Notes under the pieces: generated by a model
What the model was told of the DNA's origin: nothing
What the model saw: only the letters and a program-made list of their open reading frames with translations
Databases searched by the model: none
In this document: positions 8,857 through 62,367 of the stretch, piece after piece
Layout: the number at the start of each line of letters is the position of its first letter
How positions within the stretch are numbered: the stretch's first letter is position 1
Made by a program: the position numbers and the translations under genes
Assembly: GCA_002396805.1 (NCBI GenBank)
Contig: DGYW01000058.1
Coordinates: 45,591-109,590, forward strand
Direction: 5' to 3'
Length of the DNA stretch: 64,000 nt
From: Firmicutes bacterium UBA4996
Lineage (GTDB): Bacteria > Bacillota > Limnochordia > Darwinibacteriales > Darwinibacteriaceae

Positions 8857-10329
8857 ATGAGAATGGATACCTTTTCCTTAGTCATTTTTGGGGCCACGGG
8901 AGATTTAACGCAACGCAAATTATTCCCAGCCCTCTATAACTTGTGTCGTGAAAATTTGCTACCAGAGCACTTTTCTGTTGTGGCCATCGGTCGCAGGGAA
9001 AAAACTCAGGAGCAATTGTACCAGGACATTACAAGCGCGGTTAAACAGTTTTCTCGCGAGAATCATATCAATCAGGATCAATTTGAACAATTTCTTGAAC
9101 GGTTCAGCTACTATCAGCTGGAATTCAATAATTCTCCTGGTTACGCGGAGCTTAAGAGCTATTTAGAGAAACAGGATCGCCGGTGGCACACCCAGGGGAA
9201 TCGGATCTTCTTCTTGGCCGTGGCACCAGAGTATTTTTCGGTCATCACAGATGAACTGCATAAGCACGGAATGGCCACAAATGAGCGGAGCTGGCAACGG
9301 TTAGTGGTAGAAAAGCCTTTCGGTCAAAACCTACATTCCGCCACTACCTTAAATAGTGATGTGCGCAAGACTTTTGCAGAGGAAAACATCTACCGCATTG
9401 ACCATTACCTAGGTAAAGAAATGGCCCAAAACATTATGGTAGTTCGTTTTGCCAACACTCTTTTTGAGCCACTTTGGAATAATCGCTATATCGACCATGT
9501 ACAAATTAGTCTGGCAGAAACAATAGGTGTGGAAGGGCGCGGACCCTACTATGAGCAAGCCGGAGCCTTACGGGATATGGTTCAGAATCACGCCTTACAG
9601 CTTCTCACTTTGATTGCCATGGAACCACCCGTATCTTTGGATACCGAATCTGTACGCGACGAGAAAGTTAAAGTACTACGCTCTTTGAAAATTCGCAAGG
9701 AAGATGTAGTTCGAGGTCAATATGGTTCAGATCATGCAGGCCAACTTCGGGCCTATCGACAAGAAGAACGGGTGTCGCCTAAGTCGCAAACAGAGACCTT
9801 TGTGGCCTTAAAGACCACCATTGATAACTTTCGCTGGGCTGGAGTGCCCTTCTATTTGCGTACCGGCAAACGTCTACCACAGAAATATGCAGAAATAGTC
9901 ATTAGTTTCAAGCGTCTTCCAGGTGTGTTATACTTTGAACAGGAGGACCTAGGGCCCAACGTGTTGGTTATCCGCTTGCAGCCTGATGAAGGCATTTATT
10001 TGCAGTTTAATGCTAAGCGTCCTGGAACCCCAAGTCTTATTCAGCCCGTCTCCATGGACTTTTGTCAAAACTGTCATAACGGTTTTAATTCACCTGAGGC
10101 CTATGAGCGGTTGCTTTATGATGTGATGCGCGGTGATTCAACATTATTCACGCGCTGGGACGAAGTTGAGTACTCTTGGAGATTCGTGGATCAGATTGCT
10201 CAGTGGTGGGAAGAAGATGGGGGCGCCATTCCCGTTTACGCTAGTAACTCCTGGGGACCTCAAGCCAGTGCCGAACTTCTAAAAAAGGAAGGTCGAGATT
10301 GGCTCAGATTTATAGAAACGGAGGTTTAG
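8857..10329 (+). CDS. zwf: glucose-6-phosphate 1-dehydrogenase
   Basis: NADP-binding motif FGATGDL and the active-site region IDHYLGKE in a 490-aa protein. Confidence 0.9.
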   Translation: MRMDTFSLVIFGATGDLTQRKLFPALYNLCRENLLPEHFSVVAIGRREKTQEQLYQDITSAVKQFSRENHINQDQFEQFLERFSYYQLEFNNSPGYAELKSYLEKQDRRWHTQGNRIFFLAVAPEYFSVITDELHKHGMATNERSWQRLVVEKPFGQNLHSATTLNSDVRKTFAEENIYRIDHYLGKEMAQNIMVVRFANTLFEPLWNNRYIDHVQISLAETIGVEGRGPYYEQAGALRDMVQNHALQLLTLIAMEPPVSLDTESVRDEKVKVLRSLKIRKEDVVRGQYGSDHAGQLRAYRQEERVSPKSQTETFVALKTTIDNFRWAGVPFYLRTGKRLPQKYAEIVISFKRLPGVLYFEQEDLGPNVLVIRLQPDEGIYLQFNAKRPGTPSLIQPVSMDFCQNCHNGFNSPEAYERLLYDVMRGDSTLFTRWDEVEYSWRFVDQIAQWWEEDGGAIPVYASNSWGPQASAELLKKEGRDWLRFIETEV

Positions 10330-57585: not shown

Positions 57586-57595
57586 GGAACAGGCA

Positions 57596-57622
57596 CATTT
57601 TCTCTCTCCACCTCATAAGATA
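57596..57622 (+). promoter_or_regulatory. candidate sigma-E/sigma-K type promoter upstream of the sigK 5' segment
   Basis: CATAagaTA (57614..57622) matches the CATA---TA -10 consensus recognised by sigma-K. An AC dinucleotide lies about 16 nt upstream. Confidence 0.35.
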
Positions 57623-57641: not shown

Positions 57642-58007
57642 GTGGGCGGTGAGTTGTTTGCCCCACTATTCAGTGGAATAGGTTTGTGGTTGTTGGAGGG
57701 CGTAGGTATGCTGGCTTCCTTCGTCACCAGTGGGAGTGCTTTTCCTAAACCCTTAAGTCCCGAAGAAGAGCAAGAATTATTAATCAAGAAGGCAGAAGGA
57801 GACGAAGGGGCCCGAAATACTCTGATCGAGCGCAACCTTCGTCTTGTGGCTCATATTGTCAAAAAGTTCGATAATACGGGTGAGGACAGTGAAGATTTGA
57901 TTTCCATCGGCGTCATTGGTTTAATTAAGGCCATTAACACCTTCAATCCTCACAAGAACACTCGCCTAGCTACTTATGCAGCTCGGTGCATTGAGAATGA
58001 GATCTAA
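57642..58007 (+). CDS. sigK: sigK 5' segment (equivalent to spoIVCB): pro-sigma-K N-terminal half, GTG start, ending ..CIENEI* at the element junction
   Basis: Near-identical to the B. subtilis SigK N-terminal half ([11 protein letters not shown]...[37 protein letters not shown]...[14 protein letters not shown]). RBS GAGGGGAGG lies upstream. Confidence 0.9.
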
Positions 58008-60309
58008 CTGTCAAAGGATCGGTGTCCACCATATAGCGTTGACCGTATACTAAAAGTTCGCAGGGTGAAGCACCTTCGTGTTTGATCTTCACTCCTTCTT
58101 GATGTACCTTTACTTCGAGTCTATGACCCCTAAAGAGTAGCTTGAAGTCATAACCAGACCATTGTCGTGGTAGAAAGGGCTTTAGGGAGAGTGTGTCATT
58201 CTCAATTCGTAAGCCACCAAATCCGTAGACGATAGACATCCAGGTACCAGCCATACTAGTAATGTGCAGGCCATCATCTGTGTCATTGTTGTAATTGTCT
58301 AGATCCAAACGGGCGGTACGCAGATACAGCTCGTATGCCTTCTCTAGATAGCCTACTTCAGCCGCAATGATCGAATAAACGCAAGGAGAGAGGGAAGACT
58401 CGTGCACTGTCATGGGTTCGTAGAAATCGAAATTGCGTTTTTTTGTTTCTAGATCATAGCGGTCTCCAAGGAAGAAGAGCCCTTGGAGTACATCTGCTTG
58501 CTTGATAAAGCAAGATCGCAGAATCCGATCCCAAGACCAGTTTTGATTCAAGGGAAGCTCGTGGGGTGGTACGGCACTCACTGGGAGTAATTCTTTATCC
58601 ATAAACCCATCCTGCTGTTCAAAGACATCGTGTTTTTCCACATAGGGGTAGTACATCTTATCCATTATTTCTCCCCAACGTACCGTTTCTTCGTGACTGA
58701 GATTTAGTTGGGTGTATAATTCTCGAAAACGACTAGGATCGCTTTGGCGAACATAGTCTAGTACCTCGAGGGTGTATTCTAAACACCAAGAAGCCATGCG
58801 ATTGGTATGCCAATTGTTGTTCACGTTGTTTTCGTACTCGTTGGGTCCCGTAACCCCGAGGATCATGTAAACACCTTTGCGGGGCTGATATGTGACTCGG
58901 CCTGCCCAAAAGCGACTAATTTCTACCAATACCTCAAGGGCGTATTCTCCTAAATATGCTCGATCGTTGGTATAGCGAACATAGTTGAAGATGGCGTAGG
59001 CTATCGCCCCATTGCGATGAATTTCTTCAAAGGTGATTTCCCATTCATTATGGCATTCTTCTCCTGTCATGGTCACCATAGGATAAAGGGCCCCCGGAAG
59101 ACCTAGTTTTCGGGCATTTTCTTTGGCTTTTTCCAGGTGTTGGTAGCGATAAATTAGGAGATTACGCGCGATTTGCGGATCGCTGGTACTTAAATAGAAG
59201 GGGAGACAATATGCCTCCGTATCCCAGTAGGTACTTCCACCGTATTTTTCTCCAGTGAAGCCTTTGGGACCTATGTTTAGACGGGGATCTTCTCCAGTAT
59301 AGGTTTGATTGAGGTGGAAGATGTTAAAGCGGATTCCTTGCTGGGCGGCGGGATCGCCTTTGATTTGAATGTCACTATCGTACCATGTTTGGGCCCATGC
59401 TTGCTCGTGTAAAGCAAAGAGTTGATCATAGGTTGATTGACCGTGCTGGTCTAATAGCTTAAGAGCTTGCTCAGTAACTTGTTTGGCGGGGTAATCCCGA
59501 TTAGTGGTGACGGCTACCAACTTCTCTAAGGTCAGGGTCTGACCTAACTGCAACTTCTGTTGAACGCTAGCCTCCGCATACCCGGAACTGGCGGCAAATT
59601 GGGTGGAATTTTCCGTTATTTCGTGTTCATCCAAATAGAGGCGAAACGAGCTGGAGGCCGCCACAAGAAATCCAGATTTTTTAGTCTCCATGGTGACCAT
59701 TTGGTGGTTCGCTTCACTGGCTTCGGTCACGCCTAGCCAAAAGTCTTCACCGTAGTTGGCGTCTTCGTTGATGACGTTGCCATCAAGGTATGGCGTAAAC
59801 TCTACTTCCACACCTTCGTATGAAGGATCCTCTTCTAGGGTTACACGGTAACGGATTGCTGCAAGTTGTCGCTGATGTTTACTGACGAAACGCCCAGTTT
59901 CAAGATGTAAGATGCGTCCTTGTTCATCCTGAACTCTAAACGAACGGGTGAGTTGGCCTGCCCGCATATCCAATTTACGCTGAAAGTCAAGGGGCTCCCA
60001 AGTGTGTAGATCTACTGCGCGTCCCCCAAGACCAACTCTTATACCAATAAAGTTTACCGCGTTGAGGACTTTCGCGAAATATTCCGGATAGCCATTCTTC
60101 CACCAACCGACCACAGTACGATCAGGATAAAATACTCCTGCGATATATGTACCCTGAAGGCTATCGCCAGAATAGTCCTCCTCGAAATTTCCGCGCATGC
60201 CCATATAACCGTTGCCTAGGCTCATGAGGCTCTCGGTGACTCGATTCCTTTCTGGATGAAACCCCTTTTCAATGATTTCCCATTCATGGGTTCCGTAGAA
60301 AAATTTCAA
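57970..60309 (-). CDS. glycoside hydrolase family 65 disaccharide phosphorylase (maltose/trehalose/kojibiose phosphorylase-like). Its last 12 codons read across attL antisense to sigK.
   Basis: A 779-aa protein with GH65 N-terminal, catalytic (alpha/alpha)6 and C-terminal regions. TTG start follows a GGGGGG RBS. Confidence 0.8.
57999..58005 (+). repeat. left copy of the 7-bp direct repeat GAGATCT (attL core)
   Basis: It is identical to 62008..62014. Joining the two copies restores ..ENEILMHLR.. in frame. Confidence 0.8.
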
Positions 60310-60433
60310 GAAGATCCCCCCTTTAGAAGTCTGTTAAGTTTATCATAACTTATTTGTCATCACTTGGCAATCGTTTGCACAAAAAGCCGAGTAGTCCGTG
60401 GGGAAATCACCAAGTGGGACCTGCTGGTTCCTT

Positions 60434-61096
60434 TTAAGATTGTCGTTGCAGGGCCTCAAGTAGTTGTTTTAGGCTCACGGATTCAAATCCAGAAATAACT
60501 ACATGGGCTGCAGATAACATATTTGGCTCACCGACACCAACCGTAAGCATTCCAGCGTTTAGAGCCGCCTCAATTCCTGCTTGGGCATCTTCAAAAACCA
60601 CAGTATGTTCTGGGGCCACGTTTAGCTGAGCTGCCCCTAGTAAAAACACCTCTGGATCGGGCTTAGCTTTCGAGACCAAATTCCCATCAATGATGGCGTC
60701 GAAATAATCAGTGATCTGAACCCTTTCCAATATGGTTCGGGCGTTCTTACTTGCTGAACCAAGGGCGATTTTTATGCCCTGACCCCGCAATTCGTCTAGG
60801 AAGTCCAAGACCCCTGGTAGTATTTCCGAAGTGTCCATTTGTAAAATATACTGTACGTACCAGGTGTTTTTCTTCGCGGCTAAGGATTCTTTTTCTGCAG
60901 TTGTTTTCTCTTGCTTGCCAATCTCCAACAGAATTTCTAAGGAACGCATCCGGCTGACTCCCTTTAGCCGTTCGTTATCTCGTTCGGTAAATTCGATGCC
61001 CAATTCGGCACCTAGACGTTTCCAAGCTAAGTAATGGTATTTGGCAGTATCAACAATTACCCCATCCAAATCAAAAATGGCCAGACGAATATCCAT
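60434..61096 (-). CDS. pgmB: beta-phosphoglucomutase (HAD family)
   Basis: HAD motif I AIFDLDGVIVDT in a 220-aa protein, upstream of the GH65 gene in the same operon. RBS AAAGGAGG. Confidence 0.85.
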   Translation of the reverse strand: MDIRLAIFDLDGVIVDTAKYHYLAWKRLGAELGIEFTERDNERLKGVSRMRSLEILLEIGKQEKTTAEKESLAAKKNTWYVQYILQMDTSEILPGVLDFLDELRGQGIKIALGSASKNARTILERVQITDYFDAIIDGNLVSKAKPDPEVFLLGAAQLNVAPEHTVVFEDAQAGIEAALNAGMLTVGVGEPNMLSAAHVVISGFESVSLKQLLEALQRQS

Positions 61097-61174
61097 AAGC
61101 TGCCTCCTTTACGGACCCATTATAACATGAGATGGAGTGGGAGCACATAGATTTTAAAGAAAGGGAGGAAGGAG

Positions 61175-62017
61175 GTGGCGTATCTGATTGCCATCTACGC
61201 CCGGGTAAGCACGGAAGAACAAGCTAAACATGGTTTTAGTATCGCTGCGCAAATTCGGGAATGTCAGGAACTGGTCGATCCTCAGCTCACCTTAACCTTT
61301 GTAGATGAGGGTGTTTCTGGTGAGATTCTGCACCGCCCAGCTCTAGAAGAATTGCGCCTAAAGATCGAACAAGGGGAAGTTAACACCGTGGTGTGTTTGG
61401 ATCCTGACCGCCTATCTCGTAAGCTACTCCATCAGCTTTTACTCACGGAGGAATGGGAAAAGCGGGGGGTGCAGTTGACTTTCGTGCACGGGGATTATAG
61501 CAAAACTCCTGAAGGCAATCTTTTTTATGCCCTCAGGGGGGCGATTTCTGAATTTGAGAAGGCTAAGATCACTGAACGTATGTGCAGGGGGAGACGGGAA
61601 AAGGCTAGGCAAGGAAGGGTTTTGAGGGATTTTCAGATCTATGGGTATGATTATGACGTGGAGCATGAACAACTAGTGGTGAATAGGGCTGAGGGAATAA
61701 TAGTAAAGAAAATTTTCACCTGGTTCTTAGAGCCGCCACCAGGAGTCAAGGGAGTCTCCAGCATTGCCAAGACCTTGACATATCAAGGAGTACCTACGAA
61801 GAGAGGTGCTAAGCAGTGGCACCGGCAAGTGGTACGTCAAATTCTGAGTAATCGTACTTACTTAGGGGAATTTTATCAGAATAAATGGGACACTACCAAC
61901 TCTCAAGTCCGGTTGCGACCGTTTGAAGAGTGGATTTTAATTCCTTGTCCATCCTTGGTTACGGTGGATGTCTTTAACCAGGTTCAGAAAAAACTGTCAG
62001 TGAATTCGAGATCTTAA
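61175..62017 (+). CDS. serine recombinase (SpoIVCA-like, but only 280 aa). It has the resolvase catalytic domain and a Recombinase domain, but lacks the zinc-ribbon and coiled-coil region.
   Basis: Catalytic motif YARVSTEEQ (Ser nucleophile). GTG start follows a GGAGGAAGGAGG RBS. The stop TAA overlaps the sigK 3' ATG. Confidence 0.8.
   Translation: MAYLIAIYARVSTEEQAKHGFSIAAQIRECQELVDPQLTLTFVDEGVSGEILHRPALEELRLKIEQGEVNTVVCLDPDRLSRKLLHQLLLTEEWEKRGVQLTFVHGDYSKTPEGNLFYALRGAISEFEKAKITERMCRGRREKARQGRVLRDFQIYGYDYDVEHEQLVVNRAEGIIVKKIFTWFLEPPPGVKGVSSIAKTLTYQGVPTKRGAKQWHRQVVRQILSNRTYLGEFYQNKWDTTNSQVRLRPFEEWILIPCPSLVTVDVFNQVQKKLSVNSRS
62008..62014 (+). repeat. right copy of the 7-bp direct repeat GAGATCT (attR core)
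   Basis: It is identical to 57999..58005. An additional AACTGTCA octamer repeat sits inside each element end (58006..58013 and 61993..62000). Confidence 0.8.
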
Positions 62018-62367
62018 TGCATCTACGCACCACCAAGAGGGCTCGTCAAGAGGTGATGCTGTACGATCCCATCGGAGCAGACCGGGAGGGAAATGAGATC
62101 AGTTTGATGGATATTCTCAGTTCCGATGGTGATGAAGTACTGGAGTCGGTGGTCTTAAATATGGATCGCAACCAATTAGCAGAAAAATTCCACTGTCTCT
62201 CCAAGCGCGAGCGGATGGTTTTGGAACTAAGATTTGGTTTAGGACACCAAGAACGGCACACTCAAAGGCAGATAGGACGCATATTAGGCATTTCTCGTTC
62301 TTACGTTTCTCGTATTGAAAAACGAGCTTTGGGTAAGCTTCTAAATGAAATGGGCCCCCTCAGCTAA
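62017..62367 (+). CDS. sigK: sigK 3' segment (equivalent to spoIIIC): sigma-K C-terminal half, regions 3 and 4
   Basis: MHLRTTKRARQEVMLYDPIGADREGNEISLMDIL...QIGRILGISRSYVSRIEKRALGKL closely matches the B. subtilis SigK C-terminal half. Confidence 0.9.
   Translation: MHLRTTKRARQEVMLYDPIGADREGNEISLMDILSSDGDEVLESVVLNMDRNQLAEKFHCLSKRERMVLELRFGLGHQERHTQRQIGRILGISRSYVSRIEKRALGKLLNEMGPLS

Follow-up and report, generated by a model that had tools for sequence, protein, structure and literature searches.

The sigK gene of the window, the 64-kb stretch of Firmicutes bacterium UBA4996 analysed here, is split by a 4-kb element that carries its own recombinase (61175–62017), a protein of 280 amino acids (aa) with the catalytic domain and recombinase domain (RD) of a large serine recombinase (LSR) and nothing beyond them. 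LSRs are thought to need a module of zinc ribbon (ZD) and coiled coil (CC) for recognition of attachment (att) sites, synapsis and directionality. Sequence comparison across related loci makes it likely that the 280-aa protein serves as the active excisionase of a sigK element that is domesticated and passed on vertically, and that the protein descends from a full-length SpoIVCA-type ancestor by loss of the CC, then of the ZD, together with the gene of the recombination directionality factor (RDF). This truncated architecture recurs in 20 of 25 species-level loci, and selection persists on the recombinase, on the att half-sites and on both halves of sigK, which argues against a dead switch. 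Loci compared with the window are given L-numbers, L100 being from the window's own species.

A two-domain recombinase at the edge of a split sigK

The features of the locus, in window coordinates, are these:

61175–62017, plus strand: truncated SpoIVCA-type serine recombinase, 280 aa (open reading frame (ORF) call, Pfam, alignment, AlphaFold2 (AF2) model and Foldseek)
58001–62009, no strand: sigK-intervening element, 4,009 bp between crossover dinucleotides
57642–58007, plus strand: 5′ half of sigK (Sigma70 region 2), ending ...AARCIENEI and a stop codon
62017–62367, plus strand: 3′ half of sigK (Sigma70 region 4), 116 aa, beginning MHLR...
57986–58013, plus strand: attL, consisting of B half-site GTGCATTGAGAAT (57986–57998, sigK coding), GA (57999–58000) and P half-site GATCTAACTGTCA (58001–58013)
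61995–62022, plus strand: attR, consisting of P′ half-site TGTCAGTGAATTC (61995–62007), GA (62008–62009) and B′ half-site GATCTTAATGCAT (62010–62022, sigK coding)
57970–60309, minus strand: GH65 glycoside phosphorylase, 779 aa, cargo
60434–61096, minus strand: beta-phosphoglucomutase-like HAD hydrolase, 220 aa, cargo

The recombinase gene opens with a GTG codon preceded by a GGAGG ribosome-binding site. Pfam assigns aa 5–148 of the product to Resolvase (PF00239, E = 8e-33) and aa 176–275 to the RD (PF07508, E = 1e-16); the full extent of the RD is about aa 150–279, after helix alpha-E (aa 112–145). The nucleophile is Ser12 and the other catalytic residues are Arg10, Asp76, Arg79 and Arg82, all five of them unchanged across the 25 loci described below. 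The ZD (Zn_ribbon_recom, PF13408) found no Pfam match in this protein, and no CC was seen by alignment or in the AF2 model. That model, with a predicted local distance difference test score of 85 overall and 91–98 across the RD, comprises the whole catalytic domain, alpha-E and the RD, and the last RD helix (264–279) forms the end of the protein. The final seven codons, LSVNSRS, are a read-through of the P′ arm of the att site.

The top Foldseek matches of the model are the SPbeta, Bxb1, phiC31 and LI integrases. A PDB sequence search agrees, and the fold also matches TP901-1 integrase; the C-terminal domain of LI integrase (4KIS) aligns with the model at a root-mean-square deviation of 3.3 over 144 columns. 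With its nearest relatives among the LSRs, a length of 280 aa and an LSR-type RD, the protein falls outside the small serine recombinases, which measure about 180–200 aa and have a short C-terminal helix-turn-helix (HTH) and accessory sites or an enhancer. It nevertheless fails three defining features of LSRs, namely the ZD, the CC and control by an RDF. The picture drawn in an earlier note on this DNA, of a 280-aa recombinase with catalytic domain and RD but no ZD or CC that ends at attR, is thus borne out by Pfam, the AF2 model and the coordinates.

The att sites have the form expected for an LSR, being imperfect inverted repeats about a non-palindromic central dinucleotide, and C-A-n-T-(G/A)-A at positions −10 to −5 is common to all four half-sites. 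They share the core GAGATCT (57999–58005 in attL, 62008–62014 in attR), with predicted excision junctions GCATTGAGAATGAGATCTTAATGCATCTACGC for attB and GTGAATTCGAGATCTAACTGTCAAAGGATCGG for attP. The split in sigK falls at CIENEI|LMHLR, and joining the halves in silico gives ...CIENEILMHLR... within a SigK of 238 aa, the intact reading frame entering the 3′ half at TTA (62015–62017). In 22 of 22 loci the two junctions each have GA at their centre, and joining there gives ...(H/Q)LR... within an in-frame, full-length sigK.

Upstream of the recombinase lies a promoter-like conserved block with CATTATAACATG at 61118–61129 and a CATA-type −10 box, CATAGATT, at 61146–61153 (plus strand). Assignment to sigma-E or to sigma-K was tried and set aside, as the spacing fits neither cleanly, and we refer only to a CATA-type −10 box. 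Before the sigK 5′ half, AC-N17-CATAAGATA at 57595–57622 (plus strand) is a promoter-like site that matches the sigma-K/sigma-E type consensus of B. subtilis perfectly.

The recombinase stop codon, TAA at 62015–62017, overlaps the ATG of the sigK 3′ ORF at 62017. An overlap of the form TAATG or TGATG (62015–62019) is found in the window and in all related loci because the ILMH codons of sigK are conserved; through it, translation of the 3′ half of sigK might be coupled to that of the recombinase.

Besides GH65, HAD and the recombinase, no other genes lie between the sigK halves. The cargo belongs to sugar metabolism, not to a prophage, and is 62–81% identical at the amino-acid level across about 20 species. 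The last 11 GH65 codons cross attL and enter the 5′ half of sigK, read from the opposite strand (57970–58007), and excision would leave a GH65 tail of ...TVRSRIH*; in most relatives GH65 ends at a TGA within the TGTCA of the P arm.

The short gene might be what a sequencing frameshift or a misassembly had left of a normal gene of about 500 aa; a frameshift is an outcome that the earlier note had named as refuting. No sign of either was found. When the ZD/CC regions of six longer orthologues were searched against the 64-kb window in all frames with tblastn, nothing matched (best E = 0.047), which rules out a frameshift or hidden C-terminus, and tblastn detected no second serine recombinase in the window. 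The sigK 3′ half begins directly where the recombinase ends. Several independent metagenomes have yielded, on 15 contigs, the identical protein and the same gene order, which excludes both kinds of error, and the architecture is repeated in 19 other species; we give an artefact practically no credence.

Two further ways of lengthening the protein were considered and rejected. A programmed frameshift joining the recombinase to the sigK 3′ half found no slippery sequence on inspection. If the gene instead ran across attP, it would gain merely 15 unrelated codons before the convergent GH65 gene. The earlier note had expected the excised circle to add few codons; the addition is indeed small, although the count read from the sequence is 15 codons followed by a stop, not about 13.

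Stepwise loss of domains and of the RDF gene among relatives

A protein search returned relatives of 277–295 aa at 63–83% identity, several of them labelled Limnochordia, together with forms of about 380 aa and of 456–490 aa. Through a genome scan and contig look-ups we located 24 further species-level loci in Limnochordia-type Bacillota with the element at the same sigK codon. The layout sigK5′|GH65|HAD|recombinase|sigK3′ is common to the 25 loci, except that GH65 is missing in four (L023, L026, L027 and L029), where the elements hold only HAD and recombinase and measure 1,620–1,932 bp. Three recombinase forms were found:

463 aa, ZD and CC both present: L028 (1 locus)
378–381 aa, CC lost and ZD kept: L005, L023, L024 and L025 (4 loci)
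277–294 aa, ZD and CC both lost: the window and 19 others (20 loci)

Truncation is accordingly the norm of the clade, with about 40 protein clusters, and not the singular oddity that the earlier note had taken it to be. In the 380-aa forms, alignment shows that the cysteines of the ZD and, at the C-terminus, the ...RELLRILIKEI...TF strands are retained and the CC is absent, and the AF2 model of such a form has the ZD and a 13-residue loop in place of the CC hairpin. Pfam matches the ZD in the 456-aa relatives and in the 380-aa forms, in the latter mostly near or slightly under the curated cut-off.

Full-length orthologues of about 500 aa, 52–59% identical over the catalytic domain and RD, occur in Brevibacillus, Paenibacillus, Aneurinibacillus, Fictibacillus and others. 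In these Bacilli the sigK 3′ half follows the gene immediately, the split falls at the same codon, and the P′ arm, TGACATTAGAATC|GA, is related. The window family is therefore that of the SpoIVCA-type skin recombinases, and the window protein is, by orthology, a member of the SpoIVCA lineage.

In a neighbour-joining (NJ) tree of the shared 275 aa, the truncated genes form two separate clades. In one of them full-length L028 stands beside truncated L029, L026 and L027; the second unites 17 truncated genes, with the CC-less forms at their base. The tail peptides vary with the end-point and frame of the deletion (...LSVNSRS*, ...SSLSVNSRS*, ...SVKLKF*, ...CQ* and ...IRH*). The two clades and the differing tails together indicate at least two separate losses of the ZD. 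The same groups, with high bootstrap, come out of a tree of the host flank (HAD phosphatase and YqeH, 540 aa), a congruence that points to vertical inheritance of the element.

An intact sigK in the same gene neighbourhood is present in the relatives L088, L089/L090 and L091, whose SigK is 81–85% identical. These relatives nest inside the element-bearing group (100% bootstrap at the node excluding clade A, with their exact position poorly resolved), implying precise germ-line loss of the element in some lineages.

A frameshifted skin recombinase was noted in another lineage (L101, 8001–9508), where a 282-aa ORF and then a 233-aa Zn-ribbon ORF stand beside the sigK 5′ half; this could be either a true pseudogene or an error of sequencing. 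P0099 (282 aa) was considered as a further RD-only lineage and rejected, being a frameshifted full-length gene with a Zn-ribbon ORF downstream.

The RDF gene shows a parallel pattern. In the B. subtilis skin element the RDF, Skr, is encoded by a 64-aa ORF just upstream of spoIVCA that overlaps it by 101 nt in another frame (PMC6957869). A skr-like ORF of 44–66 aa, which matches no Pfam family and carries the motif MHVKIIEG..IR..CY.YL.EKYRRE..., precedes nearly all the full-length orthologues (most of L030–L087) as well as L028, L025, L005 (at 9910–10044) and L024. Its start lies 91–97 nt upstream of the recombinase gene, whose 5′ end it overlaps over about 100 nt in another frame. Among the Limnochordia loci, a profile of this ORF matches end to end only at L028, L025, L005 and L024. 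At the 20 truncated loci and L023, the match is confined to the half that overlaps recombinase coding sequence, and the unique N-terminal half is gone. In the window, the promoter-like block leads straight to the ribosome-binding site and start codon, leaving too little space for a skr-like RDF ORF.

Selection on the recombinase, its sites and sigK

The earlier note had left two outcomes open, a naturally minimal enzyme that works or a decayed element with sigK permanently split. Comparison favours the first and disfavours the second. The 20 truncated ORFs, which differ by about 25% in amino-acid sequence, are all open; the median rate of nonsynonymous substitution (dN) between them is 0.20, and synonymous sites are saturated in 158 of 190 pairs. 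By the method of Nei and Gojobori (NG86), the ratio of dN to synonymous substitution (dS) lies between 0.025 and 0.156 for the whole gene in unsaturated truncated pairs. In eight chosen close pairs, seven of them with usable dS, dN/dS is 0.014–0.047 for the catalytic domain and 0.03–0.13 for the RD. A pair that retains the ZD, L005/L024, gives a similar value to the truncated pairs (0.028).

The element-side half-sites are conserved in these alignments even at synonymous and non-coding positions. For the truncated species of clade B (n = 17), the P′ arm consensus TGTCAGTGAAyTC carries 1.75 bits per position at −13 to −1 versus 0.73 beyond, and the P arm 1.66 versus 0.56 bits. Where the P′ arm lies inside the recombinase ORF, third-codon positions hold 1.87 bits, against 0.69 upstream. 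In the LI integrase–DNA structure, the contact area of the RD is 13 bp and the ZD motif lies at positions 16–24 in attP and 11–19 in attB (PMC3783163); the sharp limit of conservation on both element arms equals that RD contact area. Further out, CCTTT/AAAGG at −14 to −18 is kept in the ZD-bearing forms (n = 5, with the P arm overlapping the 3′ end of GH65). Loss of this outer ZD motif was examined as a clean correlate of truncation and dropped as weak evidence, AAAGG being still present in some truncated loci, including the window.

Both halves of sigK likewise evolve under constraint (dN/dS 0.01–0.056), and in the same species the spoIIIAA–AH operon is intact about 3.5 kb downstream of sigK, past the window end (L100, 15553–20385). 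Because selection on the recombinase, on the att half-sites and on both sigK halves all persists, a dead switch is disfavoured.

These data bear directly on the possibility that the element is immobile, its recombinase a dying remnant and sporulation lost or compromised by a permanently split sigK. The loss of ZD, CC and RDF, and the fact that the excised form is unseen in the assemblies, are what decay would predict. Decay does not readily account for 20 independent truncated ORFs that stay intact, with dN/dS of at most 0.16 and invariant catalytic residues, for att half-sites that stay conserved, or for two sigK halves on which purifying selection is strong and which rejoin in frame, with the spoIIIA operon intact. 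Genuine decay looks different, as in L101, whose frameshift leaves a Zn-ribbon ORF downstream. The selection data largely refute this explanation, which we consider very improbable.

Selection on a protein does not by itself say which activity is selected. The recombinase might owe its maintenance to a different function, for instance in binding DNA or in regulating the sigK locus, with SigK working without rearrangement, for example as two polypeptides coupled through TAATG. The overlap of the recombinase stop with the ATG that opens the sigK 3′ ORF would suit such coupling, but it is explained by the conserved ILMH codons. The invariant Ser12 and Arg/Asp set argue for catalysis, and palindromic half-sites around a common non-palindromic GA suit strand exchange, not a repressor. 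To our knowledge there is no natural two-piece sigma-K. We hold very little belief in a role of this kind.

A third possibility is that the truncated protein is functional but depends on a partner encoded elsewhere, either a full-length LSR or a stand-alone ZD/CC protein, that acts in trans, for example in mixed tetramers. The ZD is important for binding in model LSRs (PMC3152356), and Firmicute genomes usually hold several COG1961 recombinases (bioRxiv 10.1101/2022.02.25.481979). No gene of this type is present in the 64-kb window or the element, however, and site conservation ends at position 13, the RD footprint, beyond which no conserved ZD motif remains that a partner might recognise. The RDF ORF was moreover lost alongside each of at least two truncations, a pattern that suits complete loss of the directionality module better than its transfer to a partner. 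We regard dependence on a partner as unlikely.

Several points weigh against a working, self-sufficient excisionase. A degenerate pattern for the attP junction gave 0 matches in metagenome contigs of the Joint Genome Institute (JGI), and the 8 matches to the attB pattern were all in distant, unrelated species. With the reconstituted 238-aa SigK as query, no same-species intact SigK above 85% identity was found among 5.8 billion proteins; the best intact matches are 85, 81 and 82% identical, and their loci (L088–L091) are from other species at 67–76% nucleotide identity. In LSRs that have been studied, the zinc domain is required for activity and for DNA binding at high affinity (phiC31 integrase, PMC3152356). 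CC-less phiC31 integrase is inactive, and CC-less LI integrase is merely about 2% efficient (PMC10754689, PMC5499577). No report of an active ZD-less LSR was found in the literature searched. On the computational side, the trees are NJ on short alignments, the NG86 ratios are rough because dS is saturated for most pairs, and the sigma-factor assignment of the recombinase promoter is by motif resemblance only.

Proposed excision and comparison with known systems

Weighed against these points, the conserved gene, sites and sigK halves suggest that the 280-aa protein probably has excision activity. During sporulation, the promoter with the CATA-type −10 box would drive expression in the mother cell. 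Dimers would then bind attL and attR, each subunit reading a 13-bp half-site through its RD, and Ser12 would cleave at the central GA. Subunit rotation and religation would join CIENEI to LMHLR, restoring sigK and releasing a 4,009-bp circle; a general host DNA-bending factor may assist. With no CC there would be no auto-inhibition of attL × attR, and an RDF would be unneeded. Directionality would stem from two sources, the geometry of an intramolecular reaction and the mother cell's terminal fate. The first reduction step, loss of the CC, has a precedent because LI integrase without its CC recombines attL × attR without an RDF (PMC10754689, PMC5499577).

A broader proposition is that a catalytic domain and an LSR RD alone perform precise, RDF-independent deletion on sites of about 28 bp, and that this arrangement evolved at least twice by stepwise loss of CC, ZD and RDF in a fixed, excision-only switch. 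Our judgement on it is evenly divided. The reduction series from 463 to 380 to 280 aa, with parallel loss of the RDF and of outer-site conservation, would define the minimal LSR machinery. If the proposition is true, integration and the control of directionality are all that the ZD/CC module is for, catalysis and site choice can proceed without it, and a 280-aa recombinase scaffold that uses short sites and needs no RDF would be of value to genome engineering. An integrase that sheds the parts for integration and reversibility once it serves an excision-only developmental switch illustrates the domestication of an element. Literature searches on Limnochorda sigK and on truncated skin recombinases yielded no description of this form. 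Described skin elements span 2.6–48 kb with a full-length spoIVCA of about 1.5 kb at the edge (Galperin et al., bioRxiv 10.1101/2022.02.25.481979). The present loci extend sigK-intervening elements to a Limnochordia-type lineage, with metabolic cargo and sizes down to 1.6 kb compared with a published minimum of 2.6 kb.

The closest comparison is with the skin element of B. subtilis, which encodes SpoIVCA (about 500 aa) and the RDF Skr. The recombinases are of one orthologous family, the Bacilli skin orthologues occupy the same codon of sigK and carry a half-site akin to the one here, TGACAT..., and the expected outcome in both is reconstitution of sigK in the mother cell. Unlike SpoIVCA, the window protein has neither ZD nor CC, and no skr accompanies it. 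The window element measures 4.0 kb, and that of some relatives 1.6 kb, where the B. subtilis element has 48 kb; it carries sugar-metabolism genes in place of prophage genes, and its recognisable element-side site is reduced to 13 bp per arm. The skin element of C. difficile (recombinase CD1231, RDF CD1234) and small skin elements are also excised in development, with an LSR at the edge and small non-phage versions. Whereas C. difficile needs an RDF, the window combines a recombinase gene of 0.84 kb with no RDF.

The engineered CC-less LI integrase, of the A118 family, offers a different parallel, having lost directionality and gained RDF-independent attL × attR recombination with the architecture of the natural 380-aa relatives. 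That mutant retains its ZD and is about 2% efficient, whereas the natural proteins have long been under selection and the window protein lacks the ZD as well. Small serine recombinases such as gamma-delta/Tn3 resolvase and Hin/Gin resemble the window protein in pairing a catalytic domain with one compact DNA-binding domain and in acting on half-sites of about 12–13 bp with a 2-bp crossover. They differ in having a 45-aa HTH instead of an LSR RD of about 130 aa; the window protein is of LSR ancestry, with no evident accessory sites or enhancer. Finally, the gin element in gerE of B. cereus (GirC and GirX) is likewise a minimal, non-phage element within a sporulation gene that is excised by its own recombinase, but it needs GirX, holds three recombinase genes, and differs in target gene and recombinase lineage.

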